From a virus: a stretch of DNA of 64,000 nucleotides. The DNA lies in the IMG/VR virus record IMGVR_UViG_3300047472_000155, positions 102,839-166,838 of that record; one strand, given 5' to 3'. This document shows positions 18,843 to 46,664 of the stretch, piece by piece. The notes under the pieces were generated by a model. It saw nothing but the letters and a program-made list of their open reading frames with translations, was not told the DNA's origin and did not search any database. Made by a program: the position numbers and the translations under genes. Every line of letters starts with the position of its first letter. Position 1 is the stretch's first letter.

Positions 18843-18866
18843 TAGATAAAACGTTTCTTTTATCTA
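18843..18866. repeat. Palindrome TAGATAAAA-N6-TTTTATCTA (copy 1)
   Basis: Spacer CGTTTC. Confidence 0.9.
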
Positions 18867-18889
18867 CTGAAAAATAAGGAGGAAGCAAA

Positions 18890-19240
18890 ATGTATAAATT
18901 AGGTGACAAAGTAGTGCCACACGACAAAAGTAGAGGTTGTAACTTGAAACATTCCAGAGAATGGGAAAAGGCAAAGAGTAATTATCAAGAATTCCTTTAT
19001 GTTACTTGCATTGATGACGATAACGATATATGGTGTGCTTATAAGAATCATGATGTTCAATCTGAAGTTTTTATCGAAGAAGATTTAACACCATATATTG
19101 AAGAAAAAATCGAAGGAAAGGTACTTTTTCAAGAAAATATGGGTGTAAAATACACAGAATTAAAGGTAAAAGACCTAATTGACCTAGTAGATAAGGGGAT
19201 TGTCAAGGAAACAGATGTGATTATCGTGGGTCGAAAATGA
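18890..19240 (+). CDS. Hypothetical protein flanked by two palindromic sites
   Basis: AGGAGG RBS; N-terminal YKLGDKVVP (SH3-like start). Confidence 0.75.
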   Translation: MYKLGDKVVPHDKSRGCNLKHSREWEKAKSNYQEFLYVTCIDDDNDIWCAYKNHDVQSEVFIEEDLTPYIEEKIEGKVLFQENMGVKYTELKVKDLIDLVDKGIVKETDVIIVGRK

Positions 19241-19248
19241 AAAAGTGA

Positions 19249-19272
19249 TAGATAAAACTTCGATTTTATCTA
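19249..19272. repeat. Palindrome TAGATAAAA-N6-TTTTATCTA (copy 2)
   Basis: Spacer CTTCGA. Confidence 0.9.
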
Positions 19273-19302
19273 TGGCTAAATTTATTAAAGGAGAGATGAA
19301 AT

Positions 19303-19659
19303 GTGATTAAAGAAACGTGGGAAATTGATGATGTAACTATAACGGCTAAGGGATATTTTACTATTTTTAAAAACTTGGAAGACGAAGATATTATGATTTC
19401 AATTTTCTCAAAAACAGAACATGAAGCATGGACGAAACTTGAAGCATCTTTAAAGTCACAATTAACTACAAAACAAATTCTTGAAAAGTTGCATGATCAT
19501 GAAAGAAAAACATCGACAATGAAAGAATTATCTGAAAAGATATGGGATGCATTTGAAATTATTACAAAAGAAGCAATAGGAGAAAACTTATCTGGAAGCG
19601 ACTATCTAGTCATTAACGCAGTATTATACAGTTTTCTAGAAGGAATAATGAACGAATGA
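19303..19659 (+). CDS. Hypothetical protein
   Basis: AAGGAG RBS. Confidence 0.7.
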   Translation: MIKETWEIDDVTITAKGYFTIFKNLEDEDIMISIFSKTEHEAWTKLEASLKSQLTTKQILEKLHDHERKTSTMKELSEKIWDAFEIITKEAIGENLSGSDYLVINAVLYSFLEGIMNE

Positions 19660-19731
19660 TAGTTGGATTTGTTTTATTTTATATCTCTATTCTATGTTTT
19701 ATATTATCATTTTTTAAAGGAGCCAATAACA

Positions 19732-20091
19732 ATGAAACTAAAAAATAATTTTGAATTTTACAGCAAGAACGACAAAGATTTTATTTATAGAGTAACTGTA
19801 CAAGGTGACAGTTGTCTGCTTGAATGGGGAGCGGGAAAATGCACTGATAATACCTCATTTTCTTACAACAGTGTAGTAAAATATATTGAAAATGGAGATT
19901 GGATAGTGGTCAAGCAAACACAAGAGTTGGTAGAAGTTATTGAAATTGGAGAATTAACACATTATTTTGCCGAATTAGCAAATGGAGAAATTATTGTATT
20001 TAGAGGCAATAAATATGATGATAAGCCACTATATACAACAATTACACAACAAGACTTTAATAGCATTAAAAAGATTATTGATCTAACATGA
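19732..20091 (+). CDS. Hypothetical protein
   Basis: AAGGAG RBS before ATG 19732. Confidence 0.7.
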   Translation: MKLKNNFEFYSKNDKDFIYRVTVQGDSCLLEWGAGKCTDNTSFSYNSVVKYIENGDWIVVKQTQELVEVIEIGELTHYFAELANGEIIVFRGNKYDDKPLYTTITQQDFNSIKKIIDLT

Positions 20092-20105
20092 AAGGTATTG
20101 ATTAA

Positions 20106-21740
20106 ATGAGTAAATTTAAACTTAGAAATAAATATGACTTTAATAAAAAAGAAGATATTGTTACTTCTTTATTGAAAGCCAGAGGAATTTCTGATATTCA
20201 GGAATTCCTCTCTCCTTCAATAAATGTTCTGAACTCAGCATATTTGCTTGGAGAAATGGGTCTTGTAGTAGCAAGAATATTGAGTGCAATTAAAAACAAT
20301 GAAAGAATATGTATTAGCGCAGATCCAGATAGTGATGGTGTTTGTTCTACGGCAATTATGGTAAGGTATATATCAAAGTTCACAAACAACTATTATATAT
20401 CTTATGCACAGCGTTCCGAAGGTCATGGTATAGAATATCAACTTGAGTTTATTGACACAAAAAACACAGACCTCTTAATTATACTTGATTCCTCGACCAA
20501 TTCCACAGAAGCTTGTGAAATATTGTCTAAATCCATGAATATTATTATTCTTGACCATCATGACGTTGAAGAGGTTAACCCTTATGCATACATTGTCAAT
20601 CCTAAGAATGATAAGACATATCCTAATAAAAACATTAGTGGAGCAGGTGTTGTGTACAAAGTAATTCAAGCACTTGACGAAAGACTTGGAAGTGGAGAGG
20701 TTGGTGATTTAATTGACCTTGTAGCTGTTGGAATGTACGCAGATATGATGCCAATGGATGTATTGGAAAATCGCCACTTAGTTATTCAAGGAATGAAGAA
20801 TATCAAAAATCCAGGATTGCTTAAAGTCCTTGAGATTGCCAATGTGTCACTTGATAAGGTGAACTCTCAAACCATTGGATTCACTATTAGTCCATTGCTC
20901 AACGGTTGTGCGCGTAAAGATAAGCTTGAACTTGGTATTGAGTTGCTTATATGTGATGATGATCAGAGATGCACAGAACTTGTTATGGAAATGAGAGCAT
21001 TAAATGATGAGCGAAGACAAGAAGAAAAAATTCTGTATGAAAATTATCTTACTAAAATTGATCCAAATGATAAAGTTTTGATTGCTATTGATGAAAATGC
21101 ATCAAAGAATTTTAATGGTCTTATTGCAAATAAATTTTCTCAAGAATTTCATCGTCCTGCAATTGTTATGCGTGAACATGAAGGAAGTCTTGCAGGTTCT
21201 TACAGAGGATTTGCGTCTTTTGATATGAAAGGATTTTTGAACCGCAAGGAAATAAGAAAGTATCTTAAATATGCATTAGGACATCCATCTGCTGGAGGCG
21301 TGGGACTAAAGTCTTCTAACTTCAAGGCATTTAAAGAAGCTATAAACAAGGCTCTTAAGCATTATGACTTCAATTCAGACATCTATTATGATTATGAAAT
21401 TGATGCAAGCTTAATTACGCCCAAGCTAGTCAATCAAATACAAGAATTTGATTATTGTAGTGGTCAAGGATTCCCTCCTGCAATGTTCTACGTTAGAGAA
21501 ATATACGTTGAAGACAATGAAGATAGGGTTGTTATGGGGAAAAATAGAGACACGGTAAAAATAAAGTCTTGTGATGTTGATGTCATTAAATTTAAGACAA
21601 ATGAAAATTGGGCTTCTGATGTTGGTACGATGGATACCATTGATGTTGTAGGTCAATTATCTCTTAATGAATGGATAAAGTGGAATGGCGAAGTTGTAAT
21701 TACCACTCAAGTTGTTGCTGACTCATATTTAATTGTATAA
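20106..21740 (+). CDS. recJ: Single-stranded DNA exonuclease RecJ (DHH/DHHA1; SPbeta YorK-like)
   Basis: DPDSDG, ILDHH, ISGAGV, DLVAVGMYAD, GSYR, GHPSAGG. Confidence 0.9.
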   Translation: MSKFKLRNKYDFNKKEDIVTSLLKARGISDIQEFLSPSINVLNSAYLLGEMGLVVARILSAIKNNERICISADPDSDGVCSTAIMVRYISKFTNNYYISYAQRSEGHGIEYQLEFIDTKNTDLLIILDSSTNSTEACEILSKSMNIIILDHHDVEEVNPYAYIVNPKNDKTYPNKNISGAGVVYKVIQALDERLGSGEVGDLIDLVAVGMYADMMPMDVLENRHLVIQGMKNIKNPGLLKVLEIANVSLDKVNSQTIGFTISPLLNGCARKDKLELGIELLICDDDQRCTELVMEMRALNDERRQEEKILYENYLTKIDPNDKVLIAIDENASKNFNGLIANKFSQEFHRPAIVMREHEGSLAGSYRGFASFDMKGFLNRKEIRKYLKYALGHPSAGGVGLKSSNFKAFKEAINKALKHYDFNSDIYYDYEIDASLITPKLVNQIQEFDYCSGQGFPPAMFYVREIYVEDNEDRVVMGKNRDTVKIKSCDVDVIKFKTNENWASDVGTMDTIDVVGQLSLNEWIKWNGEVVITTQVVADSYLIV

Positions 21741-21745
21741 AATGC

Positions 21746-21774
21746 TTGACAAATAGAAGATAAAATGATATGAT
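21746..21774 (+). promoter_or_regulatory. SigmaA-type promoter with conserved spacer element
   Basis: TTGACAAATAGAAGATAAAATGATATGAT. Confidence 0.85.
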
Positions 21775-21805
21775 TGACCTATCAAATATAAGGTGGTTAT
21801 TATAA

Positions 21806-22015
21806 ATGATAGGTCAAAAAAAACAAAATGTAGTCATCCCAATGGGAACTGATACAAAAATTTCATTTGAGATCAACAATAAATATGAACACATTAACAC
21901 AAGTAATACAACATTTCTCATTACCGATAGTCGCTCACAAGCTTTAGTCACATTTAGTGAAATGAAGAGAATAATACAAGAATTGCAAGAATTGATTAAT
22001 ACCGGAGAGAACTAA
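21806..22015 (+). CDS. Hypothetical protein
   Basis: ORF between two promoters. Confidence 0.65.
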   Translation: MIGQKKQNVVIPMGTDTKISFEINNKYEHINTSNTTFLITDSRSQALVTFSEMKRIIQELQELINTGEN

Positions 22016-22023
22016 AATTGTAA

Positions 22024-22052
22024 TTGACAAATGTAAGATAAAATGATACAAT
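22024..22052 (+). promoter_or_regulatory. SigmaA-type promoter with conserved spacer element
   Basis: TTGACAAATGTAAGATAAAATGATACAAT. Confidence 0.85.
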
Positions 22053-22087
22053 TACTATTGTAAGATATCAAGAAGGAGAGATAAATA

Positions 22088-22426
22088 ATGAGCAAAAGTA
22101 AATTGGAGATTTTAAACGAATTGAAACAATATGTTGATGAACGTAAGATTATTCACTACGATTACATTCAGGTTAAAGAAAGCGGATATGTAAGTTATGA
22201 TTCTCTTGGTTTTATTGCTAATCAAATTGGAATTGAAGATGACGTTCTATTAGAATTACATGGAGATTCTATTGATTCGGCACATGTAGGAACAAAAGAG
22301 TTTGCAGAAAATTTGATTGAGGCAGGATTTTCTCTTGACGAACTTGCAGAGTTGCAAATTCTGAATGATTCTTCCCCTGTAGAAGAATTGTTGGAATATA
22401 TCAATGTTTTGATTGAAGAGTTATAA
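22088..22426 (+). CDS. Acidic hypothetical protein
   Basis: AAGGAG RBS. Confidence 0.75.
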   Translation: MSKSKLEILNELKQYVDERKIIHYDYIQVKESGYVSYDSLGFIANQIGIEDDVLLELHGDSIDSAHVGTKEFAENLIEAGFSLDELAELQILNDSSPVEELLEYINVLIEEL

Positions 22427-22481
22427 TAATAATGTTAGCATCATAGAATAACAATATAGAATTAAAATGAGGAGTGGAAAT

Positions 22482-22748
22482 ATGATCCAAGAATTAAAAA
22501 ATGAAAAATTTGTTAAGAAAGTGTCGGTTGAATATGTAGATGGAACAAGTGAAGTATTTGATGGTGAATTCCTTGTACTTATCACCGATAATGGAAATGA
22601 TGGCAAGTGGAATGTAAAATTGTCAGAGGACGCAGAAATGGAAAAGGTTTTGAGCTTTGCCTATGATGCTGTAGATGAAATTGAAAATGCAAGTTTGGAT
22701 GAAGCTATTCCTCAAAAAGCATCTCATTTGAGGTTAATAAAAGGATAA
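22482..22748 (+). CDS. Hypothetical protein
   Basis: GAGGAG RBS before ATG 22482. Confidence 0.7.
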   Translation: MIQELKNEKFVKKVSVEYVDGTSEVFDGEFLVLITDNGNDGKWNVKLSEDAEMEKVLSFAYDAVDEIENASLDEAIPQKASHLRLIKG

Positions 22749-22777
22749 TGATTGGATTTACTTGTTTATTGTATGCA

Positions 22778-22806
22778 TTGACAAATGCAAGATAAAGTGA
22801 AACAAT
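22778..22806 (+). promoter_or_regulatory. Promoter-like element with conserved spacer (weak -10)
   Basis: TTGACAAATGCAAGATAAAGTGAAACAAT. Confidence 0.65.
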
Positions 22807-22830
22807 ATTATCATTAAACGAAAGGAATGG

Positions 22831-23115
22831 TTGAAACTAATGAGCAAAATTTTGGTCAAACACATGATTGTCAAGGCTCCAGCACAAGAGGTTATTATAA
22901 ATCTCGATAATAAAATGAGGATTTCTATTAGTCCCAACAGACTAGAAAACAATGTTCCTAGTTTAGAGAAAACAAGGGAAGCATACCGACAAGATTACGA
23001 TTATCAAGCAATATTCATTAAAGAAGATGGTGGATATTATGATTCGTTTACGGTAAGAGAGTTTGAAGAATTGATTGGCAATTTGCAAAGCATGGTTGAT
23101 TACATCAAGAGTTAA
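22831..23115 (+). CDS. Hypothetical protein (paralog of the next gene)
   Basis: Shares LE....AY.QD and ELI..LQSMVDY with 23150-23494. Confidence 0.7.
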   Translation: MKLMSKILVKHMIVKAPAQEVIINLDNKMRISISPNRLENNVPSLEKTREAYRQDYDYQAIFIKEDGGYYDSFTVREFEELIGNLQSMVDYIKS

Positions 23116-23149
23116 ATAAAAATCACAATATAAGAAAGTAGGATGTTAA

Positions 23150-23494
23150 ATGAGTAAGACAAAATTGATTCACTATGTACCATCAGACGTTATTCTTCCG
23201 GTTGAAAATTATTTGATTGAAGACGATGGGAAAAGCGTTACTATTGCTTCGAATTATAAGTCAACGCTTGAAGGTGCAAAAACAGCTTATGAGCAAGACC
23301 CATTGGCGAATATATTTGCACTTCGACCAAATGGAACAGGGTTGATTGGGTTTACATTTGAGCAAGCAAAAGAGTTAATTCAATCGTTGCAAAGTATGGT
23401 TGATTATGTAGTTCCACCAGTAGTTATTCCTCCAGTGACAGAACCAGAGGAAGATGATTCAGAAGAAGAACCAGTTGACACAGAAACACCGTAA
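23150..23494 (+). CDS. Hypothetical protein (paralog of the previous gene) with acidic/Pro tail
   Basis: Shares the motifs noted for 22831-23115. Confidence 0.75.
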   Translation: MSKTKLIHYVPSDVILPVENYLIEDDGKSVTIASNYKSTLEGAKTAYEQDPLANIFALRPNGTGLIGFTFEQAKELIQSLQSMVDYVVPPVVIPPVTEPEEDDSEEEPVDTETP

Positions 23495-23502
23495 ATAAAT
23501 CG

Positions 23503-23524
23503 TTGACCCCCGAAAAGGGGTCAA
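23503..23524. terminator. GC-rich hairpin, possible terminator or stabiliser
   Basis: TTGACCCC-cgaaaa-GGGGTCAA; no + strand U-tract. Confidence 0.5.
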
Positions 23525-23556
23525 TAAAACAAAAAACTTCCCTCTAAAGGAGATTA

Positions 23557-24690
23557 ATGAGAATGAAAATCGTAAAAACAGGTGAGATTACAAGAATTTT
23601 TTCAGATGATCTTCAAACTTTCGATAAGATTCCAGTTGGAAATTATAAAGTTTGCTTTCACCCAATGATGGGTTTTTACTTGGAAGATGCCGACTCCTTT
23701 AAAAACAATGAAAAGCCATATGGAAAGCATCCTTTAAAAATCTCTAAAGTTGTTGCACTATACCAAAACATCGAAAGAAGCGCTGGCATTATTTTAAGCG
23801 GAAAAAAGGGTATGGGGAAATCTATGTTTGCTAGACTTCTTTCGGAAGAGTTTGCTAGTAAGCATGATATGCCAACGATTATGGTTACAGAAGCGTTCAA
23901 AGGAATCGTTGACTTTATTGAATCAATAAAACAAGAGTGCGTCATTTTGTTTGATGAATTTGAGAAGGTATTTGACAGTGAACGTGAGAACCAAATGAGA
24001 GAGAAGCCTAGTAACAAGGAGTCTCAAGATAGATTGCTAGGTTTGTTCGATGGTCTTTCACAAACGAAACGCATGTATGTAATAACAGTCAATGAGATCA
24101 GAAGAGTTAGCCAATATATGATCAATCGACCTGGACGATTCCATTATCATATTCAATTTAATTATCCCTCTGCCGCAGAGATTGAATTGTATCTCAAAGA
24201 CAAATTGTTGCCTCAGTATCAAAACCAAATAACTCTTGTTCAAAGGTTTGCAAATCGTTTTGATCTAAATTATGATTCATTACGTGCAATTGCCTTTGAA
24301 TTGAATAATGGTTATGGATTCTTGGAAACAATGGAAGACTTGAATATCTCATCTTCCGAGAACCAAAGAGTCAAATATAATGTTGAGGTTCACTATAGTA
24401 ATGGACTCGTTGCGAAAAGCATCGAAGAAGTTGATTTGATGAGTTCTGACTATGCGTTCGGAGTTTCAGTTTCTGGAGAGTATGCACGTATCACCTTCTC
24501 TCCACTTGAAGTTGAAATTCATAACAAAGATTCTTTCGTAGTAAATACGGATGATGTAAAAGTAGATGTGCGTTATGATAGTGACAATGAAATTCTCAAT
24601 GATGAAAGTGAAATCATCGTCACCAAACTTGTATTTAACAAACAAACCGTAGGCGCTCAATTTGGCAAAGAAATGGCGAACTTGTTTTAA
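23557..24690 (+). CDS. AAA+ ATPase
   Basis: GIILSGKKGMGKS, VILFDEFEK, NRPGRFHY. Confidence 0.88.
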   Translation: MRMKIVKTGEITRIFSDDLQTFDKIPVGNYKVCFHPMMGFYLEDADSFKNNEKPYGKHPLKISKVVALYQNIERSAGIILSGKKGMGKSMFARLLSEEFASKHDMPTIMVTEAFKGIVDFIESIKQECVILFDEFEKVFDSERENQMREKPSNKESQDRLLGLFDGLSQTKRMYVITVNEIRRVSQYMINRPGRFHYHIQFNYPSAAEIELYLKDKLLPQYQNQITLVQRFANRFDLNYDSLRAIAFELNNGYGFLETMEDLNISSSENQRVKYNVEVHYSNGLVAKSIEEVDLMSSDYAFGVSVSGEYARITFSPLEVEIHNKDSFVVNTDDVKVDVRYDSDNEILNDESEIIVTKLVFNKQTVGAQFGKEMANLF

Positions 24691-24729
24691 GATTCACGGT
24701 AGTTAAGTATGATGTGACAAATGTCACTC

Positions 24730-24758
24730 TTGACAAGCGAGAGATAAAATGATATAAT
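24730..24758 (+). promoter_or_regulatory. SigmaA-type promoter of nrdIEF with conserved spacer element
   Basis: TTGACAAGCGAGAGATAAAATGATATAAT. Confidence 0.9.
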
Positions 24759-24769
24759 TACAGGACTAT

Positions 24770-24808
24770 AGAAGGTTGACCCCTTAAAAGGTTAACCTTC
24801 TCTTTTTA
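24770..24808 (+). terminator. Terminator-like hairpin in the nrd leader
   Basis: AGAAGGTTGACC/GGTTAACCTTCT then CTTTTT. Confidence 0.65.
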
Positions 24809-24837
24809 TCTCTACTTACACAGAAAGGGAGAAAGAC

Positions 24838-25194
24838 ATGTTGATAGCTTATAATTCTCTTACAGGAAATGTAAGAAGATTTGTTAATAAGTTGGAAATG
24901 GATATGATAGAAGTTAATCCAACACTAGAGATCAAAGAGAAGTTTGTATTGGTCACTTTTACTGTAGGATTTGGCAAGGTGTCCAATAAGGTTATAGACT
25001 TCTTGAATTACAAAGATAATTACAAGAACATGATTGGTGTGTCATCAAGTGGGAACCGAAATTGGGGAGACAATTTTGCAAAAGCATCCGATATAATTTC
25101 TCAATTATATGATGTGCCAATTGTATCAAAGTTTGAATTAGCAGGAATACAAAAAGATGTAGATTATTTTAAGAAAAGGATTGATGAATTGTGA
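24838..25194 (+). CDS. nrdI: Class Ib RNR flavodoxin NrdI
   Basis: SLTGNVRRFV, SSGNRNWG..F, KFELAG. Confidence 0.95.
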   Translation: MLIAYNSLTGNVRRFVNKLEMDMIEVNPTLEIKEKFVLVTFTVGFGKVSNKVIDFLNYKDNYKNMIGVSSSGNRNWGDNFAKASDIISQLYDVPIVSKFELAGIQKDVDYFKKRIDEL

Positions 25195-27269
25195 GTAATT
25201 ATATCGAATTAAATAATGAGGTCTATACACGAAAAGATGGATTTTTCCAATTAGACAAAGACTTGGAAGCAGTGAAAGCTTTTGAAAAAGAAGTTAAAAA
25301 GAAATTAGTAAAATTTAATAGCATTGATGAAAAAGTGCATTGGTTAGTTGACAATGACTATTATTACAATGTATATGAACAATACACAGAAGATCAAGTA
25401 ATTGAAATATTTAGAACCGCATATGAGTTCAATTTTAAATTTCAATCTTTTATGGCTATTTCAAAATTTTATAATGACTATGCCATGAAAACAAATGACA
25501 AGAAAAAGTACTTAGAACACTATGAGGATAGATGTTCAATTGTCTCCTTAAATTTAGCAAGAGGCAACTTTGAAAAAGCAAAGAAGCTTATTGTAGAGCT
25601 TATGGAACAAACATATCAACCAGCAACACCTACATTCCTCAATGCAGGTAAAAGCAGACGTGGTGAGATGGTTTCATGCTTCTTGCTTGAGATGGGAGAT
25701 AGTTTAAATTCTATTGGCAATGTAATTAATACGTCTATGCATTTAAGTAAGTCAGGTGGAGGCGTAGCAATCAATTTGTCTAAATTACGTTCACGTGGTG
25801 AATCAATTAAAGGCGTAGAAGGTGCTGCCAAAGGTGTAATGCCTGTTTTGAAGTTGCTAGAAGACGCATTTAGCTATGCTGATCAAATGGGACAACGTAA
25901 GGGAGCAGGCGCAGCATATTACAACATCTTTGGATGGGACGTTATTGAATTCCTTGATACTAAGAAGATTAATTCCGATGAAAAATCACGTATTCAATCA
26001 TTGTCCATTGGATTAATTGTTCCACATAAATTCTTTGAACTTGCAAAAGAAGATAAAGACTTGCACATGTTTGCACCATACTCAGTATTTAAAGAATATG
26101 GTATTCAACTTGATGATATGGATATGGATAAAATGTACGATGATCTTGTAAATAACAATAATGTAAAGAGTAAAAAAATCAATGCACGTGATATGCTTTC
26201 TAAAATTGCTGTCACTCAAATGGAATCTGGATACCCCTATCTTATGTTTAAAACAAATGCTAATAAGCTCCATGCACTTAAGAACATAGGAGATGTAAAG
26301 CAATCAAATCTTTGTACCGAAATATTCCAACTTGCAGAAGAAACAATTATCAATGATTATGGTGTAGGAGATGTTATTAACAGAGATATAAACTGTAATC
26401 TTGGTTCACTTAATATTTACAATGTAATGAGAAAGAAGAATTTTAAGGACATCATTCACGTTGCAATGGATGCATTAACTGCCGTAAGTGATATGACAAG
26501 CATTATCAATGCTCCAACAGTAAGAAAAGCAAATGATGAACTTCATGCTGTTGGTTTGGGTGCTATGAATCTTCATGGATATCTTACTAAGAATAAGATT
26601 GCATACGAAAGTAAAGAAGCTTTAGATTTTGCAAATACATTCTTCATGATGGTTAATTATTACTCCATTCAAGCAAGCGTAGAGATTGCGAAAGAAAAGG
26701 GTGCATTTAAAGATTTTGATAAGTCTGAATATGCTAATGGCAATTACTTTGTCAATTACATTGGAAAGAGTTATGAACCAAAGCTCGACAAGGTTAAAGT
26801 ATTGTTTGAAGGAATTCAAATTCCAACTATTGAAGATTGGAAACAACTTAAAGAAGATGTGAGAAATCATGGAATGTATCATGCATATAGACTTGCCATT
26901 GCTCCAACTCAATCTATTAGCTATGTACAAAATGCCACAAGCTCTGTGATGCCTATTGTTGATGCAATTGAAATTAGAACATATGCCAATTCAACAACAT
27001 ATTATCCAATGCCTTTTCTTGCACCAGACAATATGTTCTTCTATAAGAGTGCATATAACATTAATCAGTATAAGCTAATTGATATGATCGCTACCATTCA
27101 GGAGCATGTAGATCAAGGCATTAGTACAATCTTATTTATTGATAGCAACACATCTACAAGAGAACTTGGAAGATATTATGTTTATGCTGAACTCAAAGGG
27201 TTAAAGAGTTTGTATTACACAAGAACAAAAAAGCTTGATATTTCAGAATGCACATCGTGCAGCGTGTAA
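25191..27269 (+). CDS. nrdE: Class Ib ribonucleotide reductase alpha subunit
   Basis: [38 protein letters not shown]-terminal CTSC. Confidence 0.96.
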
Positions 27270-27286
27270 AAAGGAGAAAAAATAAA

Positions 27287-37357: not shown

Positions 37358-37358
37358 G

Positions 37359-37387
37359 TTGACAAGTGAAAGATAATATGATAATAT
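37359..37387 (+). promoter_or_regulatory. Promoter with conserved spacer element
   Basis: TTGACAAGTGAAAGATAATATGATAATAT. Confidence 0.75.
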
Positions 37388-37486
37388 AACATTACAAAGT
37401 TCACCGAGATGAGATATGAAAAAATATCTCTTGACAAAAAGAACCAATGTAAGATAAAATGAAATTACATTAAAGGAGGGAACAAG

Positions 37487-38158: not shown

Positions 38159-38173
38159 AAGGAGGATGTTGGC

Positions 38174-38527
38174 ATGATCAGAAACATTATAAACTTTTTT
38201 GTAATTCTTGCATTATTTTTTATAGGGAGTGAATATTTCCCTGAACATATTTATGCGCAAGACACAAAGACATTAATCATTGCAACATTGACAATGTTTA
38301 TCATAGGAACAGTTGCGGGAATCATTGTTGTTGCACTATTAGTGCTTATTCCACCTATTGGATGTTTTGCTATATTGGCAATAATCTTTATTGTTCCAAT
38401 TGAATTAATCCTAACATCTCATTATATCAATGGATTTGAAATCAATGGATTTTGGACTTATGCATTGTTGTCATTTGTTATTTCATTATTTTCTTTAAGA
38501 GTGAATGCAACTTATGAAAAAAAGTAG
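38174..38527 (+). CDS. Membrane protein, YvlD/holin-4-like
   Basis: Four hydrophobic helices; GFEINGFW.YALL. Confidence 0.65.
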   Translation: MIRNIINFFVILALFFIGSEYFPEHIYAQDTKTLIIATLTMFIIGTVAGIIVVALLVLIPPIGCFAILAIIFIVPIELILTSHYINGFEINGFWTYALLSFVISLFSLRVNATYEKK

Positions 38528-38606
38528 TTGACAAACCGACTAGTAGAAGATAAAAGGTAAGACTAAGTTGTTAAACAAACTAAACTATTAAAAGGTGGAA
38601 AATTAA

Positions 38607-39113
38607 ATGAACAAGTTTAATGAAAAAAGTCAAGCAAATTTTAGTGTTACTAATCAAAATGTTCTTATTTTTGTTGAAGGTGAAAACGAACAAAATTCAA
38701 ACAATGTAAAAAAGAAAAGAGAAACAAAAAGAGAACGTGTTGTTAAGCTAATTGAATCTGGCATGAGCAAAGCTGAAATAATGGACATCGAGAACATTTT
38801 GGAAGGTAGTTACTACAACTATAAAACCATTTACAATAAGATGAAAAATCTTACTGATTCAAGACTTCATAAGACATTGAAAAATCAAGACACCGAAAAA
38901 GACCTTGTTATTTCGAAACCAATGTTTAATGCAAAAGCTTTTAAAAATGTTTCATTTTTGACGGTTAATGGAAAACCGTCGATGTTGCTTGAGGTTTCAG
39001 ATTCCTATATTAGATATCTTGCATTAGAAGGTGGCGGAATGACTTCTCAAAGAAGTGTTCATGTTTCCGATGTAATTAAAAATCAAGAATGCATTAAGCT
39101 ATTTATTCAATAA
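38607..39113 (+). CDS. Putative HTH DNA-binding protein
   Basis: RVVKLIESGMSKAEIMDIENILEGSYYNYK resembles a helix-turn-helix. Confidence 0.5.
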   Translation: MNKFNEKSQANFSVTNQNVLIFVEGENEQNSNNVKKKRETKRERVVKLIESGMSKAEIMDIENILEGSYYNYKTIYNKMKNLTDSRLHKTLKNQDTEKDLVISKPMFNAKAFKNVSFLTVNGKPSMLLEVSDSYIRYLALEGGGMTSQRSVHVSDVIKNQECIKLFIQ

Positions 39114-39155
39114 ATGAAAGATAAAATGAAATATAAAAAAGAGAGGATGTTATAA

Positions 39156-40571
39156 ATGTTACAAGATATTTTCAAGAACCCAGCAACAATGACGGATTGT
39201 TACAACCTTTCCCATCCAGACTTTAAAGAGAGTATTGATTGGGAGATTTCACATATGTACAATCGTGACGATTCACAAGGCTATGGCGGCATGTATCTTT
39301 ATGGGTTTTCCGAAATTGTTAATCGAATTCTATCCATTAAAATTGAAAAATGGATGATTGATGAGGCACAAGACAATGCAGAAGATATGGGACTTTGGTT
39401 CCCATATGATATGTGGATGCGTGTCATTGATGAATGTAATGGATATATCCCACTTCATGTTGAAAGTGTACCAGAAGGTACTTGGTGTCCAAATGGAACG
39501 CCGTTTGCTCAAGTGTCAAATACCAAAGAAGGATTCGGAGATTTTGTAACATGGTATGAAGGAATCTTTATGATGGCTTATTTCCCATCAGCATGTCTTA
39601 CAGAAGCTATGAAAATGCGTGAATACATTGTTTATCGCAAAGAACAATTCGGTTATGACGATTCCTTTATGTGGAGATTCCATGATTTCGGATTTCGCTC
39701 TCATCGTTCTCCAGAAGATTCCTATTGGGCTTCTACCGCATGGAATATGGCATTGTGTGGCACGGATACATTTCACAGCAAGAAACACACTCCAAAAGCT
39801 AAAATTGGCAGTATTCCAGCACAAGCTCACAAGGTAACTCAACAATTTGATAGAGAATTTGATAGCTTTAAACGTGCTATCGACAAGACTCATGCAAATG
39901 GTAAAAAAGTTGTATCTCTCTTGATTGATACGTATGATTCGAATCGCTTTATCAAAGAATATTTGCTGCCACTTGCTATTTATGCGTTTGATAAAGGAAT
40001 CGACATTAGCTGTCGTCCAGATAGTGGAGATACTTGGAAACAAGCTCTTGAAATTTACAAAATTGTTCAAAAGAACAATTTGAAAAACGTATCCGTTCTG
40101 ATTGGTGAAAGCATGAGCTTTCAAAACGCAAAGAAATGTGACGAATACATGCTTCAAAATGGTGTTCCACTTAATTTTATTCTTTATGGGATTGGTGGAG
40201 GATTTCACAAACACATCGAACGTGATACACATGGTTGGGCTATGAAAACAGCTTTTTCCAATGGAAAGCCGCGCATGAAATTCTCTATGGTTCAACTCAA
40301 GCGAAGCGTTCCAGGTGAGGTTGCTCTTATTAAAAAAGGAGACGATTTATTCGTAACACCAGATTCACATGAGCTTTATAATGATGATGTATTTAGAACA
40401 ATTTATTATTTTAATCCTTCGGAACTTGATACGCCATTTATTAAGATTGCTGATTGGGAAGAAACACAGCAACGTGCAATCAAACAAAATGCATCTCAAA
40501 CACGTATCTATCTTTCTTCGGAAATTGTTAAAATGATAAACGAATTTGAAAAGACATATAGGGGGCAATAA
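39156..40571 (+). CDS. nadV: Nicotinamide phosphoribosyltransferase (NAMPT/NadV-like)
   Basis: TDCY..SH, VPEGT, HDFGFR, GTDT, SIPA.AH, IDTYD, RPDSGD, YGIGGG, RDT..WAMK. Confidence 0.85.
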   Translation: MLQDIFKNPATMTDCYNLSHPDFKESIDWEISHMYNRDDSQGYGGMYLYGFSEIVNRILSIKIEKWMIDEAQDNAEDMGLWFPYDMWMRVIDECNGYIPLHVESVPEGTWCPNGTPFAQVSNTKEGFGDFVTWYEGIFMMAYFPSACLTEAMKMREYIVYRKEQFGYDDSFMWRFHDFGFRSHRSPEDSYWASTAWNMALCGTDTFHSKKHTPKAKIGSIPAQAHKVTQQFDREFDSFKRAIDKTHANGKKVVSLLIDTYDSNRFIKEYLLPLAIYAFDKGIDISCRPDSGDTWKQALEIYKIVQKNNLKNVSVLIGESMSFQNAKKCDEYMLQNGVPLNFILYGIGGGFHKHIERDTHGWAMKTAFSNGKPRMKFSMVQLKRSVPGEVALIKKGDDLFVTPDSHELYNDDVFRTIYYFNPSELDTPFIKIADWEETQQRAIKQNASQTRIYLSSEIVKMINEFEKTYRGQ

Positions 40572-40573
40572 AA

Positions 40574-41272
40574 ATGAATGGTTCAATTATAAAGAATCCA
40601 TACGCTTCTGACGGACCATATGGATATGATGGAACTGGAATAGATGTATCAAGAGGCAAGCCATTTCAAACACCGCAATCGTTCTCTTCTACCCAATCAA
40701 AGCCTTTCAAGCTTGGATTTATGCTTGGTAGATTCCAACATGTTCACATTGGACATGAGATGCTTATTCGCAAAGCATCTAGCGTTTGCGACACGCTTAT
40801 TGTTCTTGTTGGATCTGCTCAAGCAAAGGACACACTAAGAAACCCATTCGATATTGCTACAAGACTTGATCTAATTGGTCAAATCTTTGTCAATGATAGA
40901 AATATCATTGTATCATCTATTGATGATTTAACCCATGAAGATGATCATAGTCAAGAATGGTCAATCTTCTTATTAAACAGATTGATGGAGGTTCTTGATA
41001 AAAATAACATCAAACAAAATCCAGATTTATTTATCTATGGAGATGATGAAGAGAGAGCTTCTTGGTTTAAAGATGAAAATAATTTCTCGAAACTTATTAT
41101 TACAAGAGATGCCATTGACATCAGCGCAACCAAGCTTAGAGAGTACATTGTGAAAAATAATCGTTTCAAATGGAGACAATATGTCAACCCCATTCTTTAC
41201 GATGAGTTTGATTTACTGAGAGATAGATTACTTGATATTGAAGAATATAAGGAGATGGAAAAAAATGACTAA
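40574..41272 (+). CDS. NMN adenylyltransferase (NadM-like)
   Basis: GRFQHVHIGH, VGSAQ...RNPF...R, ISATKLR. Confidence 0.88.
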   Translation: MNGSIIKNPYASDGPYGYDGTGIDVSRGKPFQTPQSFSSTQSKPFKLGFMLGRFQHVHIGHEMLIRKASSVCDTLIVLVGSAQAKDTLRNPFDIATRLDLIGQIFVNDRNIIVSSIDDLTHEDDHSQEWSIFLLNRLMEVLDKNNIKQNPDLFIYGDDEERASWFKDENNFSKLIITRDAIDISATKLREYIVKNNRFKWRQYVNPILYDEFDLLRDRLLDIEEYKEMEKND

Positions 41273-41825
41273 TATTGTTGATAAAGACGTTAAATTCAAT
41301 GGACGAATTTTTAAGGTTGAACAACGAAAGATTGTCCATGAAGGAGAAACTATTTATCGTGACGTTGTTACAAAGAATGACGTTGTAGTTTGTTTGGTGC
41401 ATAACGTAGACAATGATACAGTAGTTCTAACTTCGGAATACAGAGCAGGAACAAATCAAATTGAAGTTGGCTTTGTTGCGGGAATTGTTGACGATGGAGA
41501 GTATTCAACTGTAGCTGCGATCAGAGAGGTTCAAGAAGAAACTGGTTATGAAGTAGATAATATTTATCATCTTGGAACAACCAATTCTTCTGCTGGATTT
41601 ACTAATGAAAAAGTTCATCATTTTATTGCATATGTTCATGGTAAACCAGGAAATCAAGATTTAGATGAAGATGAGAAAATTAATGTAATTGAAGTTCCAT
41701 CTTATGATCTTGAGGACATGATTGTTGATGGAAGAATTAAGGGAAATCATGCACATGCCACTCTTCTAAGAGCAATTCTTTATGGTGTAAAGTTGAATAG
41801 AGAGTGTGATGATCAAAGTGAATAA
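41265..41825 (+). CDS. Nudix hydrolase, ADP-ribose pyrophosphatase (NudF-like)
   Basis: Nudix box GIVDDGEYSTVAAIREVQEETGY; SAGFTNE; LDEDE. Confidence 0.88.
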   Translation: MTNIVDKDVKFNGRIFKVEQRKIVHEGETIYRDVVTKNDVVVCLVHNVDNDTVVLTSEYRAGTNQIEVGFVAGIVDDGEYSTVAAIREVQEETGYEVDNIYHLGTTNSSAGFTNEKVHHFIAYVHGKPGNQDLDEDEKINVIEVPSYDLEDMIVDGRIKGNHAHATLLRAILYGVKLNRECDDQSE

Positions 41826-42120
41826 TGTTAAGGATAATGCGAAAAGAATTTCTCGTTTTAATCTTAATAAAATCAATGATATGTCACACTGGGTTTTGCG
41901 GTTTGATAATGATCCTTTATATATAAATAGGGTTAAGGCTCAAACGTGTAAATATTGTTATTACAAGCCTTCAGTAGTATCTTTACAAGCATTTACGGAA
42001 TTTAAATGTATTGTATGCAATGAAACGTTTATGCATCACAATTCCGATGTTGATCATGTATGTAAATCATGTGCAACAGAGCACGAATTGTGCGTACATT
42101 GTGGAGGTGAAATAAATTAA
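41806..42120 (+). CDS. Multi-CxxC zinc-binding protein
   Basis: Four CxxC pairs. Confidence 0.7.
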   Translation: MMIKVNNVKDNAKRISRFNLNKINDMSHWVLRFDNDPLYINRVKAQTCKYCYYKPSVVSLQAFTEFKCIVCNETFMHHNSDVDHVCKSCATEHELCVHCGGEIN

Positions 42121-42142
42121 TATTGACGAACAAGTAATTAGC

Positions 42143-42355
42143 TTGCAACAACAAGTGTTTGATCAGCAAGGTTTGAGGAGCAGTGTACACATTAAAGAAG
42201 GAGTGGGAATATTAATTACACAAGAGAATATGCCTTTAATTCCTCAAAATGTAATTCTAGCTATTCCGTGGCACTTTCTTATGTTCGGAAATCTCACTAT
42301 AAATGTTCAAGAAAATATTGAAGAAGAATATGAAGAATATGAATGGGAGGGTTAA
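42143..42355 (+). CDS. Hypothetical protein
   Basis: ORF; start uncertain. Confidence 0.45.
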   Translation: MQQQVFDQQGLRSSVHIKEGVGILITQENMPLIPQNVILAIPWHFLMFGNLTINVQENIEEEYEEYEWEG

Positions 42356-42357
42356 TT

Positions 42358-42666
42358 ATGAAGGAATCATGGATTTATACAACACTTGCTGCATTGCCTT
42401 GGTGGGCAACTATTTTATGGATTGCTTACCTTGTTTATTTCCTTTATCGTGCATATGAGATTTGGGAAATCACGGATAAATATGGAATTATCAAGGGGTA
42501 TAAAATTGTATTCCTTGGACACAATGGACGAACGCTAAGACTATATCATCTTCTGCGTATGATTATTGATATTCCTTCAGCAATTCTTGGATTGTTCTTC
42601 CCATTATTGCGAAAAATATTTTCCTTGAAGCTTTATGAATTCAAAGAGAAGAAAGGAGAAAAATAA
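42358..42666 (+). CDS. Membrane protein
   Basis: GGGAGG RBS; hydrophobic segments. Confidence 0.7.
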   Translation: MKESWIYTTLAALPWWATILWIAYLVYFLYRAYEIWEITDKYGIIKGYKIVFLGHNGRTLRLYHLLRMIIDIPSAILGLFFPLLRKIFSLKLYEFKEKKGEK

Positions 42667-42857
42667 TGTGGAATTGGTTGCATAATTTAAACTTATTTGT
42701 TAAGTTACTAATTTTTGTTTTAGCTGTAGTTGTTGCATGTTTCATTATTGTGTTCTTGATAAAAGTGCTGATAAAGGTCTTCATTATTATTCTAGCAATT
42801 GTAATCCTGTCGATTGTTGGATGGTTACTTTATCAAATATTAACCGATGACAAATAG
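42666..42857 (+). CDS. Small two-TM membrane protein
   Basis: AAGGAG RBS; highly hydrophobic. Confidence 0.7.
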   Translation: MWNWLHNLNLFVKLLIFVLAVVVACFIIVFLIKVLIKVFIIILAIVILSIVGWLLYQILTDDK

Positions 42858-42872
42858 AAGATAAAATAACTA

Positions 42873-42915
42873 TTGACAAATGTTAGGTGTTCTGATATAA
42901 TATCAGTACACCTAA
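42873..42915 (+). promoter_or_regulatory. dnaE promoter embedded in an inverted repeat
   Basis: TTGACA 42873, TATAAT 42896; TTAGGTGT.CTGATA/TATCAG.ACACCTAA overlaps it. Confidence 0.75.
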
Positions 42916-43008
42916 TTTTGTTTAAAGGAGATGTCAACTTGAAAGCTTTAAATTCTCAATGAGAATTTGATAGCCAAGAGACAAATATAAGATAAAGGAA
43001 GTGCTTTA

Positions 43009-46000
43009 ATGTGTCAACAATGTAATGAAAGTAATGTCGTCACTCATCCAAAGCTAAAAGTAATACAAGAGGATAGATTTATTAATCTACACCTTCACAC
43101 GGCTTATAGCTTGCTTGACGGAATGAGTAAGATCAAAGATGTTGTAGCAAAGGTTAAGTCATTAGGTCAAAAGGGATTTGCAATCACGGAACATGGTAAT
43201 GTGCATAGTTCGGTTAAATTGTACAAAGAGGCAAAGAATGAAGGAATTAAGTTTATCTATGGAGTAGAATTTTATATTACAGATGATAGATTTGCAAAAG
43301 ACAAAGACAAGAAATATTTCCATCTTACCGTTTTAGCAAAGAATGAACAAGGAAGACAAAACATCAATAAACTTGTAACTCTAGCGAACATCGAAGGATT
43401 TTATTTTAAACCTAGAATTGATTTTAAGCTACTTGAACAACACAAAGATGGCTTAATTGTTATGAGTGGATGTATGGCATCTGAAATGCAACAAGCACTT
43501 GCAGGAGGAAAGATTGGCAATGGTGACATTGAAATTACGTCAAGCAATATTGAGAATGCAAAAAATATAGCAAAACGTTACCATGATGTATTTGGTGAAG
43601 ACTATTATCTTGAAGTTCAATCACATAGAGATAGTAGACAGCAACAATTAAATCGTGCAATTGTTAATATTGGCAAAGATATGAATATTCAATTTGTTGC
43701 AACCGCAGACTCTCATTTTGTTAACGAGGAAGATTTGGAGTTGCACAAGATTTTTATTGCTATTGCACGTAACAAAGATGAATATGAGGAAGATGAAACT
43801 TATGCAGATACACAAATACAAAGTGAAAGAGATGCATGGATTAGACTTACCTCACTAACGGAGGAAGAAAGAGATGTGGCAATTCGGAATACTAGAATTA
43901 TTCTTGACAAATGCAATTCACCTTTACCATTGTCAGCGGCACTAATCCCACATGTTAAAGTACCTATGCAATTTGATTCACAAGAGGCTTTCTTGAAAGA
44001 TTTGTGCAACAAGGGATGGATGATGCGTAAGATTAATCGTAAAGATAAAAGATTGGTTAAAAAATACAGAGAACGTTTGATGTATGAATTTAATGCCATC
44101 ATTGAAATGGGATTCGAAGGATATTACTTATTGGTATATGGATATGCCAATAGTGTTGTACGTAGAGGTATTGCACGTGGTAGTGGTGGAGGTAGTCTAG
44201 TTGCCTACTTGCTCAACATCGTTGACATTGATCCTATCGAACATGGATTATACTTTGAACGTTTTATTGACGTTGCACAACTTGACTTGTTACGTGATGG
44301 AGTAATTACACGCGAAGAGTTAAAGATTCCAGACTTTGATTTAGACTTTGGAACAAAAGAACGTGATTTAGTAGTTGAAAACATTGTGAGTGAACATGGA
44401 CAAGAGTATGTAGCCGCACTTGGTCAATTTGGATATATTTGGTCAAAAAGTGCAATCAAAGATGTCGGTCGAGTTATGGGTATTGATTTTGAAATAACTA
44501 ATGCAATCACTAAGGCATTAGATGATGACACAATTGATGGAGCTATCATTAGTAATAATCATGAAATTATAGCTTATGAAAAGAAATATCCTAAGTTGTT
44601 TGAATATGCAAGAAAGCTTGAAGGGCTACCACGATCTTATGGTATGCATCCATGTGGAAAAGTAATTACAATTGACAAGGCAGTTTATTATACCGCATTA
44701 ACACAAGACAAGAAGAACGGCGAAATGGTTCTTCAACTTGACATGAAGGACGCAGAAGCACTTGGATTGGTTAAGGTTGACTTATTGGGACTAAGAACGG
44801 TGGATGTTATTTATGATTGTCTTGACATGATTGGGAAAGATACGGAATACATTCGAGACCTTGACTACAAGAGCTTAGATGTTCTTGGTGTATTTAAGGG
44901 CGGATATACAGATGGCATCTTCCAGTTTGAATCAGATGGAATGAAGAATACCATGAAAAAGATGAAACCTACAGGCATTGATGATTTGTCAGTAGTTAAT
45001 GCTTTATATCGTCCAGGTAGTATGAAGTATATTGACAATTATATAAATCGTATGCATGGACTTGAGAAGTTTGAGTATTTAAACAAAGACCTCGAAGAAG
45101 TGTTAAGAATTACGTATGGTATTATTGTATTCCAAGAGCAATTAATTGAGATTGGAAGATTGGCACATATGAGAAATCCTGATCTTTTGCGTCAAGCTAC
45201 AGGTAAAAAAGATATTAAGAAGCTAAAACAAGCAGAACCAGAATTGCGCGAAGGGTTGTATGCACGTGGATGGTCGAAAGAACAAGTTGACCAACTGTGG
45301 GCGGATATGCTTGAGTTCGCCAAATATTCTTTCAACAAAGCTCATTCACAAGCGTATGCCATCATAGCTTTCATTTGCGCATTCCTCAAAAAGAATCATC
45401 CACTTGAATTCATGTGTGCATGGTTGAATTCACTCGAAGGCAAGGAGAGTGAAAAATTCGAAATAGCATATAAGGAAGCAGTACGACTAGGTATTAAATT
45501 TAACACTCCATCGTTTAGAAACACTACTCCATTGTGTGTAGTTGAGAATGGTGGAATCACTTACGGTCTTTCTCTCATTAAACATTGCAACAGACAAATT
45601 GGAGAAGAGGTGAGAACTCTTGATAAAGATTACAAGTACTTTGTTGACTTACTTGTAGACCTAAAAGAAACTACTATTGTTAATAGCAAACAACTTGATA
45701 TCTTGATTCGTCTTGGATACTTTAATGAATTTGGCAAACCGGAAAAGTTGATAGACATTGTTGATGAGTTCGTTGAGGGCAAGGTAAGATATGACAAGAA
45801 ACACAAACCAGCAACAAAAGTAAAACGAATTGAAGGATTGCACTTATTTGAATCCAACATGGAAGAAGTTGCACCATACTCTCCAATGGATACAATTATG
45901 TTTGAGAGAGAACATTACGGATTTATTCTATCCAAGTTTCCTGAGATGAAAGGTCGAATTGTAGGCGTATTGAACATTGACATGAAATACACTCCAAAAT

Positions 46001-46224
46001 TTGACTGTTACGTATTTAAGTCAGGCGAAATATTCCAATTCAAAGTTAAGAAAGACAAGTTCTTTGGAAGAAAGGACATTGAAGCATTTGAAGTTGGAGA
46101 TATGATTAAAATATTGGCTATCTCTGAAAGAGAGAAGAATAAAAAGGTGGATGATAAATGGGTTAAAACGGGAGAGATAGAATATTACTTGGAAAAATGT
46201 TCAAGATATCGCTTGACAAATTAA
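43009..46224 (+). CDS. dnaE: DNA polymerase III alpha subunit (family C; SPbeta YorL-like)
   Basis: PHP domain HLHTAYSLLDG, ARGSGGGSLV, IPDFDLDF, GMHPCG, KVDLLGL, KYSFNKAHS. Confidence 0.96.
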   Translation: MCQQCNESNVVTHPKLKVIQEDRFINLHLHTAYSLLDGMSKIKDVVAKVKSLGQKGFAITEHGNVHSSVKLYKEAKNEGIKFIYGVEFYITDDRFAKDKDKKYFHLTVLAKNEQGRQNINKLVTLANIEGFYFKPRIDFKLLEQHKDGLIVMSGCMASEMQQALAGGKIGNGDIEITSSNIENAKNIAKRYHDVFGEDYYLEVQSHRDSRQQQLNRAIVNIGKDMNIQFVATADSHFVNEEDLELHKIFIAIARNKDEYEEDETYADTQIQSERDAWIRLTSLTEEERDVAIRNTRIILDKCNSPLPLSAALIPHVKVPMQFDSQEAFLKDLCNKGWMMRKINRKDKRLVKKYRERLMYEFNAIIEMGFEGYYLLVYGYANSVVRRGIARGSGGGSLVAYLLNIVDIDPIEHGLYFERFIDVAQLDLLRDGVITREELKIPDFDLDFGTKERDLVVENIVSEHGQEYVAALGQFGYIWSKSAIKDVGRVMGIDFEITNAITKALDDDTIDGAIISNNHEIIAYEKKYPKLFEYARKLEGLPRSYGMHPCGKVITIDKAVYYTALTQDKKNGEMVLQLDMKDAEALGLVKVDLLGLRTVDVIYDCLDMIGKDTEYIRDLDYKSLDVLGVFKGGYTDGIFQFESDGMKNTMKKMKPTGIDDLSVVNALYRPGSMKYIDNYINRMHGLEKFEYLNKDLEEVLRITYGIIVFQEQLIEIGRLAHMRNPDLLRQATGKKDIKKLKQAEPELREGLYARGWSKEQVDQLWADMLEFAKYSFNKAHSQAYAIIAFICAFLKKNHPLEFMCAWLNSLEGKESEKFEIAYKEAVRLGIKFNTPSFRNTTPLCVVENGGITYGLSLIKHCNRQIGEEVRTLDKDYKYFVDLLVDLKETTIVNSKQLDILIRLGYFNEFGKPEKLIDIVDEFVEGKVRYDKKHKPATKVKRIEGLHLFESNMEEVAPYSPMDTIMFEREHYGFILSKFPEMKGRIVGVLNIDMKYTPKFDCYVFKSGEIFQFKVKKDKFFGRKDIEAFEVGDMIKILAISEREKNKKVDDKWVKTGEIEYYLEKCSRYRLTN

Positions 46225-46270
46225 CGAATGTAAGATAAAATGAAAAAAGAAACAACCACCGGGAGGCACT

Positions 46271-46552
46271 ATGAACAAAGAAGACGAAAAGGAATTGCTA
46301 CAATTTATAAGAGAACTTGCAGAAAATGATATAATTATTGGAACATTTCTAAAGATTGCGGAAGTAGATGCACGAATGGAAATGATTGGTGAACGTGTAA
46401 GCAAAGACTTTCTTGATGATACGATTATTGCAAATGGATTGAAATCTATGATTAAATCTATTATGTCGCTCCAATCAGAAAGAATTCAATTGTTGTATGA
46501 AGATTTGAAAGATGCACATTTAAAAACTCCAATTATTTTGAAGATGGACTAA
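46271..46552 (+). CDS. Hypothetical protein
   Basis: GGGAGG RBS. Confidence 0.7.
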   Translation: MNKEDEKELLQFIRELAENDIIIGTFLKIAEVDARMEMIGERVSKDFLDDTIIANGLKSMIKSIMSLQSERIQLLYEDLKDAHLKTPIILKMD

Positions 46553-46640
46553 CAAACTTATTGGGATTTGAGATGCTTACTTTAAGTAAGTTGCATTTTA
46601 AATCCCAATATCTTATTGACATTTGAGGGGTCGCTACTGG

Positions 46641-46664
46641 TAGATAAAATTTATATTTTATCTA
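46641..46664. repeat. Palindrome TAGATAAAA-N6-TTTTATCTA (copy 3)
   Basis: Spacer TTTATA. Confidence 0.9.

Follow-up and report, generated by a model that had tools for sequence, protein, structure and literature searches.

The stretch of phage DNA considered here (IMG/VR virus record IMGVR_UViG_3300047472_000155, positions 102,839 to 166,838; 64,000 nucleotides, in the following the window) forms the last 64 kb of a 166,838-bp phage contig (G000) and contains three copies of an inverted repeat, TAGATAAAA-N6-TTTTATCTA, at window positions 18843, 19249 and 46641 (Table 1), where none is expected by chance (100 dinucleotide shuffles). These sites and their spacers (CGTTTC, CTTCGA and TTTATA) had been listed in an earlier, sequence-only reading of the window and were recovered as given; the first two indeed lie just after stop codons and enclose only a ribosome-binding site and the open reading frame (ORF) 18890-19240. 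The arms, which had been described as 9 bp long, are inverted and identical, but their true length is 10 bp (ATAGATAAAA on the left, TTTTATCTAT or a variant ending in C on the right), and the complete element spans 26 bp.

The whole of G000 was scanned for the arm pair with spacer lengths of 0 to 15, which yielded ten copies of AGATAAAA-N6-TTTTATCT (0.2 expected); spacers of any other length in this range were not found in G000. No two of the ten spacers agree, and each element occupies the short interval from a stop codon to the ribosome-binding site of the following gene, whose start codon follows after 17-33 nt. The elements are dispersed over 135 kb (genome 14.9-149.5 kb) and occur on both gene strands. 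The bracketing pair noticed in the window is one of three such pairs in G000, each enclosing one or two small ORFs. A match to AGATAA-N10-TTATCT at genome position 6020, considered as an eleventh copy, is imperfect, lies within the tape-measure gene and was taken to be a chance occurrence, and the supposed degenerate copy at 10132-10149 turned out to be part of a sigmaA-type promoter (TTGACA-N17-TAACAT, window 10120-10160) that is followed by an oriented AGATAAAA box and does not belong to the family.

G000 was compared with G001, a 170,562-bp IMG/VR contig that is syntenic with it at about 75% nucleotide identity (range ~70-83%). Exact elements are present at all ten orthologous places in G001, with 197 of 200 arm positions and 57 of 60 spacer positions identical, compared with 77.6% identity in the adjoining homologous flank (P = 2.4e-4), and this conservation is limited to the 26 bp. 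Nine sites have one homologous flank (69-77 of 90 positions, ungapped) and one random-like flank (19-38 of 90), with the switch at the edge of the element; the tenth (genome 30996) is a conserved island, both flanks of which are non-homologous to G001. Breakpoints of homology or gene content mostly fall no more than 5 bp from an element edge, and several gene-sized indels abut elements. The sequence-only reading had made the coincidence of gene-content breakpoints with the palindromes in relatives the test of its own proposal; in G001 the two coincide at nine to ten of the ten sites, an outcome in favour of the proposal. The end of a high-scoring segment pair (HSP) lies within 10 bp of the edge in six of the ten elements (random intergenic windows: 6.6%; P = 1e-5) and within 35 bp in nine (15.8%; P = 5e-7). 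At the level of gene gaps, junctions were found in 8 of 10 gaps with an element versus 76 of 240 other gaps (P = 0.003). No enrichment of junctions was seen at 46 intergenic promoter-type AGATAAAA sites that served as an internal control (12 within 30 bp).

Regarding the three window sites, element 1 has the same sequence and spacer in G001, where an extra gene of 357 bp is found exactly at its left edge. At element 2 the left flank agrees in 77 of 90 positions and the right flank in 38 of 90, homology stopping 2-4 bp past the element. The spacer of element 3 reads TCTATA in G001, and ~520 bp of DNA present only in G000 start 25-27 bp to its right. The three bracketed units are kept in G001 while both outer flanks differ; among them is ORF 18890-19240, which is retained as a unit together with both flanking elements, the ORF itself showing only 57% amino acid identity. 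An insert of 247 bp in G000 relative to G001 lies between a lone left arm (100037) and a full element (100284), with direct repeats of the arm as its boundaries, which is the expected product of short-homology recombination or deletion. Whereas the neighbouring genes turn over, the 26-bp element itself stays the same, and it is a preferred joint for the exchange, gain or loss of gene units between related phages.

The core of the element (ATAAAA-N6-TTTTAT, with N6 only) is the top palindrome family in the element-bearing phages listed here. It occurs in 17 copies in G004 and in 14 in the SPbeta-like provirus G005 (both IMG/VR contigs), and among named phages in 12 copies in SPbeta, 14 in phi3T, 30 in FADO, 28 in PJN02, 20 in Tsamsa and 15 in Izhevsk; Clostridium phage c-st (13 copies) probably also carries the family. 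The core is rare or absent in G002 (1 copy), Sundance (0), KKP_3916 (2) and LC76P1 (1), and reversed-pattern controls gave 0-1 copies. The half-site approximates T-R-R-ATAAAA and occurs as two inverted copies, with N6 only, in 10 genomes. A Shine-Dalgarno (SD) sequence and a start codon are found on exactly one side of 9 of 10 elements in G000, 22 of 30 in FADO, 20 of 28 in PJN02 and 12 of 20 in Tsamsa, as against ~10% of random positions. The upstream stop codon is often formed by the TRR of the left arm, ATAAAA contains a TAA in a second frame, and the outer A of the right arm coincides with the start of the SD sequence. A palindrome scan of genome and metagenome contigs was dominated by single chance matches in A+T-rich DNA, with few related phage contigs among the matches listed. 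A literature search with the motif sequences returned nothing relevant, no description of the elements was found in the SPbeta literature searched, and the palindrome family has apparently not been described before.

Two observations concern individual members or look-alikes of the family. In SPbeta (NC_001884, 99493-99518) and phi3T (KY030782, 89335-89360) an element occupies the same slot upstream of yorE between non-homologous flanks, and the two spacers (TGATAA and TTATCA) are reverse complements of each other, which could be chance or an inverted site. In Sundance (NC_028749), AAATACATGTATTT palindromes at 3820-4390, 6984 and 110872 are clustered upstream of a ParA-like gene and probably represent a centromere or origin array; they were rejected as members of the family, as they sit at ParA and have no relation to gene junctions or gene-start elements.

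Mosaic junctions were also found at the elements of other lineages. In FADO compared with PJN02, an HSP end lies within 10 bp of 10 of 30 elements (P = 2.5e-11), and junctions occur in 11 of 27 element gaps versus 34 of 202 others (P = 0.006). The corresponding figures are 5 of 20 elements (P = 5e-5) and a gap-level odds ratio of 2.3 (P = 0.10) for Tsamsa and Izhevsk, 2 of 12 (P = 0.22) and 2.8 (P = 0.12) for SPbeta and phi3T, and 3 of 10 (P = 0.049) and 1.2 (P = 0.54) for SPbeta and G005; the HSP tests used a random-position null for the first two pairs and an intergenic-window null for the two SPbeta pairs. When five SPbeta elements were probed against all SPbeta-like records, each of the five had several relatives in which homology starts or stops no more than 5 bp from the edge, e.g., eleven phages with a junction at query positions 593-601, where the element starts at 597. 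The junction ends concentrate at both outer edges of the element. Conserved islands between non-homologous flanks recur as well (SPbeta 113663 versus G005; SPbeta 116414 versus phi3T). The enrichment of junctions at the elements is real but moderate; most junctions fall elsewhere, and many elements lie within conserved blocks.

The reading preferred here, which is given about an even chance, is that the family consists of conserved, gene-start-associated DNA dyads of many large temperate Bacillus-type siphophages, putative binding sites of a dimeric, sequence-specific protein, that act as recombination joints in the manner of the promoter-early stem-loop (PeSL) cassettes of T4-type phages (Arbiol et al. 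2010, PMC2839356; Comeau et al. 2014, PMC4122927). PeSL cassettes likewise have a short, conserved, repeated motif before small, mostly ORFan genes in plastic regions, with junctions at the motif and motif pairs that bracket single genes. They differ in that PeSL combines a sigma70 promoter with a terminator hairpin, neither of which the G000 elements have, whereas the latter are strict dyads with 6-bp spacing and conserved, site-specific spacers in siphophages of Gram-positive hosts. Exchange would take place mainly by homology-dependent crossover inside the conserved element, as proposed for PeSL cassettes; a functional element at gene starts would double as the crossover point, and no dedicated integron-like capture machine would be involved. 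The indel bounded by arm repeats favours the PeSL-like explanation, as does the fact that no recombinase was found to co-vary with the elements. How tailed phages keep their gene order and yet swap genes at sharp joints is an old question (modular theory, boundary or linker sequences), and in at least four lineages of large Bacillus phages such joints are marked by a defined 26-bp element of strict geometry. Among them, SPbeta/phi3T is genetically tractable in B. subtilis 168, and the question is therefore directly testable. In addition, between 12 and 30 sites per genome, regulatory or structural and so far without annotation, are flagged in well-studied phages.

Several points weigh against the PeSL-like explanation. 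Compared with other gene gaps, junctions are enriched only 2-9 fold, and in three of the five genome pairs taken singly the enrichment is not significant. The elements could mark a class of accessory genes with fast turnover, which would explain part of the enrichment. Since the TRR coincides with the stop codon and the outer A with the start of the SD sequence, the symmetric half-site may be shorter than it looks. No binding protein was found, and a phyletic profile of the G000 proteins gave none that tracks the elements across phages; it returned only a 375-amino-acid protein and the Phage_VG64 lipoprotein-like protein, each of which is missing from some element-bearing lineages. Host-factor motifs (ComK A4N5T4, Fur, the ARG box and dif) do not fit the N6 geometry, and a host factor is a possible binder. 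Finally, plain homology-driven crossover explains neither the conserved, site-specific spacers nor why junctions do not favour the promoter boxes, which are conserved over an equal length.

These last two observations both fit a site-specific exchange addressed by the spacer, which, although considered unlikely, is kept as the main rival. The elements would then serve a tyrosine recombinase of the phage as core sites, with inverted arms of ~10-11 bp and a 6-bp overlap as in dif; as each slot would have its own spacer, only orthologous slots of co-resident genomes would recombine, and bracketed units would be swapped without excision, a natural counterpart to the use of heterospecific lox sites in recombinase-mediated cassette exchange. 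The architecture (10-6-10 in G000) resembles dif sites of the XerA-XerS type, loxP and heterospecific lox sites in its inverted arms, its asymmetric spacer and the combination of identical arms with varying spacers; spacers that differ within a genome and are shared between orthologues are compatible with recombination between genomes only. The spacer conservation confined to the 26 bp, the island elements of G000 and SPbeta and the three bracketed units kept between differing outer flanks would find a place here as well. As the sequence-only reading had suggested, the genome was searched for a tyrosine recombinase, and three proteins of this fold are encoded in G000 (genes at 12.5, 47.3 and 83.3 kb; Table 1), whereas a serine recombinase was looked for in G000 and not found. 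Recombinase-fold proteins occur in the genomes that carry the elements, and the Xer-like Rec1 has the catalytic residues in the order R...HxxR...H...Y. As the cognate enzyme Rec1 would fit G000, G001 and G002, but it could not be detected in Tsamsa, Izhevsk and SPbeta despite their 12-20 elements, whereas Sundance has Rec1 and no elements. Rec2 has K in place of the second catalytic arginine, and both YopP-like and MrpR-like proteins also occur in the element-poor G002 and in Sundance, so that neither tracks the elements. In contrast to dif and lox sites, no co-varying enzyme was found, the copies number 10-30 per genome, dispersed and tied to gene starts; at least one indel used the arm alone as a direct repeat, and the many elements in conserved blocks and the many junctions elsewhere count against addressed exchange, too. 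A wider version, which is more doubtful still, would have a recombinase-fold phage protein join only elements with the same spacer, so that co-resident SPbeta-like phages or prophages swap units slot for slot with the gene order kept, and would regard MrpR/SroF and its box as the domesticated half of such a recombinase/site pair.

It is also rather unlikely that the palindromes act as RNA, i.e., as intercistronic A/U hairpins just upstream of the SD sequence that would serve mRNA processing, protection from 5' exonucleases or translational control as operators, the link to junctions being secondary. The fixed place between stop codon and SD sequence in several phage lineages and the occurrence within co-directional gene runs without a promoter of their own would suit such hairpins, and those predicted for the ten G000 elements have folding energies of -5.8 to -8.5 kcal/mol. 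The predicted values for SPbeta and G004, however, are mostly -0.3 to -4 kcal/mol, and six A-U pairs make up the hairpins of these two phages as well as those of FADO and Tsamsa. The stems show conservation of sequence and no covariation: beyond the 6-bp core, the two arms at a site complement each other no better than arms taken from different sites do, the outer-arm complementarity of 35 SPbeta, G004 and G005 sites is reached in 60% of shuffles, and 73 of 200 outer positions pair in FADO and Tsamsa compared with 85 expected. The loops differ between sites, which is the opposite of typical RNA hairpins bound by protein. A search of Rfam 15 at the gathering score gave 0 matches within the window, and no promoter-like or terminator-like site was found at the elements, the stems consisting of A/U only where an intrinsic terminator would have a G+C-rich stem and a U tract. 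The missing covariation of the outer arms and the mostly very weak hairpins therefore led to the elements being read as protein-binding DNA dyads and not as RNA stems; a dyad of fixed spacing that is read by sequence argues for a putative dimeric, sequence-specific DNA-binding protein.

That this protein is the repressor of the oriented promoter boxes, the palindromes being its dimer or double operators, is improbable, although the 8-mer AGATAAAA is common to palindrome arm and promoter box in both G000 and G001. The arm had been equated with the core of the promoter element; the shared 8-mer bears this out, but the overlap is limited to these 8 bp, and the box has A instead of T ahead of them and an extended context unlike that of the palindrome, which lacks the ACAAATG part. 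The oriented element of G000 (~20 bp, ACAAATGNAAGATAAAATGAAA) resembles SPBRE, which was derived from six SPbeta promoters (ACAAATACAAAWAATATGTATA), and is therefore most likely the box of the MrpR homologue encoded at 83.3 kb (Pfam MrpR_N_CB 5.8e-25 and MrpR_C_cat 1e-12, both above the cut-offs), i.e., a candidate operator of an MrpR/SroF-family repressor. G002, which has a box core of AAGAATAAATG alongside a repressor that is 50% identical, possesses repressor and box without palindromes of the family, and conversely SPbeta, FADO and Tsamsa carry palindromes but unrelated repressor boxes, the SPbeta MrpR box having a different core. The SPBRE/MrpR (SroF) operators are, like the palindromes, dispersed in many copies over short intergenic spaces of one phage genome, and their binder has a tyrosine-recombinase fold; the same arrangement of dispersed repressor boxes is known from the 'stoperators' of mycobacteriophage L5. 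Those boxes, however, are asymmetric, oriented, 13-26 bp long and bound by monomers, whereas the palindromes form a separate, coexisting family between stop codon and SD sequence. MrpR, the master repressor of SPbeta, is a protein of recombinase fold whose target is the repeated SPBRE box; chromatin affinity purification sequencing (ChAP-seq) in SPbeta revealed only the ten SPBRE peaks (PMC10516654). Its phi3T orthologue binds as a monomer to an asymmetric box of 24-26 bp, of which nearly every base pair is read (bioRxiv 10.1101/2025.11.27.690993). The suggestion that the palindromes are dimer operators of the promoter-element regulator is thus not borne out by these properties.

Integron-like capture, in which an integrase would excise the units between two palindromes as circles and insert them elsewhere, had been the other suggestion of the sequence-only reading and is very improbable: single small promoterless ORFs bracketed by two sites (three times), the two paralogue families clustered beside elements and the breakpoints at the sites speak for it. 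Integron attC sites, too, are palindromes, though imperfect ones; they bound promoterless cassettes and are recognised by a tyrosine recombinase. The integron reading fails, however, on every testable point: under the NCBIfam integron-integrase models (cut-offs 265 and 435 bits) the best recombinase, Rec1, scores 18.6 and 18.1 bits, there is no attI, Pc or tandem array, the sites are spread over 135 kb, they are perfect 26-bp palindromes without GTTRRRY and not 57-141-bp attC sites with R''-L''/L'-R' boxes, and the element-flanked genes are lineage-restricted ORFans for which comparison with the other phage lineages detected no homologues. As all spacers in G000 differ, those on either side of a unit are never the same, and classical excision of the ~406-bp unit is therefore not expected.

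A further comparison concerns the start-associated sequences (SAS) and extended SAS of Cluster K mycobacteriophages, which Pope et al. 2011 are said to have described as a conserved motif right upstream of the start codons of some non-structural genes. They reportedly resemble the elements in having inverted repeats with a variable spacer, and differ in including the ribosome-binding site and in their unrelated sequence and host phylum; we know of no report that associates SAS with junctions.

The genes downstream of the elements are mostly small accessory ORFs, and the small ORFs that adjoin elements include two paralogue families (A and B) without known domains. The N-terminal ~50 amino acids of the family A ORF 19303-19659 are common to four further small ORFs, which also adjoin elements.

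Table 1. Elements, neighbouring ORFs, promoter boxes and recombinase-fold genes (window coordinates unless marked as genome coordinates)
Feature	Position	Strand	Remarks
ORF upstream of element 1, 132 aa (amino acids)	18441..18839	+	Pfam Phage_VG64 (E 8e-54), lipoprotein-type signal peptide
Element 1	18842..18867	.	ATAGATAAAA-CGTTTC-TTTTATCTAC; stop of ORF 18441-18839 3 nt before; ATG 18890 22 nt after
Bracketed ORF, 116 aa, paralogue family B	18890..19240	+	no known family
Element 2	19248..19273	.	ATAGATAAAA-CTTCGA-TTTTATCTAT; 7 nt past stop of bracketed ORF; GTG 19303 ~30 nt on
ORF downstream of element 2, 118 aa, paralogue family A	19303..19659	+	
Element 3	46640..46665	.	GTAGATAAAA-TTTATA-TTTTATCTAT; start 46696 ~30 nt on
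ORF downstream of element 3, 118 aa	46696..47052	+	within segment that G001 lacks; no family match
Oriented AGATAAAA boxes	e.g. 16459, 16832, 21758, 22036		
Rec1, Xer-like, tail module	genome 12456-13433	-	R, HxxR, H, Y motifs align with XerA
Rec2, homologue of SPbeta YopP (E 1e-23)	genome 47342-48436		second catalytic R replaced by K
MrpR/YopR-family protein	genome 83317-84294		30% identical to SPbeta YopR

Homologues of the Phage_VG64 protein encoded upstream of element 1 are present in Tsamsa and G004 and were not found in FADO, G002 and Sundance; the name given to this family in PHROGs, 'recombination directionality factor', looks doubtful. Directly downstream of the element at genome position 80785 lies a gene for an HNH endonuclease (genome 80825-81283), which has 79% amino acid identity in G001. 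At genome positions 14890-15045 a major-tail-like gene is followed by a TTGACA-N17-TATAAT promoter, a terminator-like hairpin and a palindrome; promoter and hairpin are kept in G002 and Sundance, but the palindrome is not, and in G001 an extra gene of 960 bp separates the hairpin from the palindrome.

A megablast search of the region against INPHARED gave no match. The replication genes of G000 are of the SPbeta type (DnaE-like polymerase, RecJ-like exonuclease, helicase, primase and ribonucleotide reductase), and the closest cultured relative is Brevibacillus phage Sundance, with a DnaE amino acid identity of 53%. G002 (IMGVR_UViG_3300038443_000757) contains ~12 copies of a parS-like repeat (CACGTGAAACA / CACGTGGAACA), which suggests a putative plasmid-prophage partition system. 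The DnaE-like polymerase of G000 (window 43876-46224) shares only 34% identity with its positional counterpart in G001, a relative otherwise ~75-80% identical, but 73% with the polymerase of G002, which is the more distant of the two; a core replication gene seems to have undergone allelic replacement.

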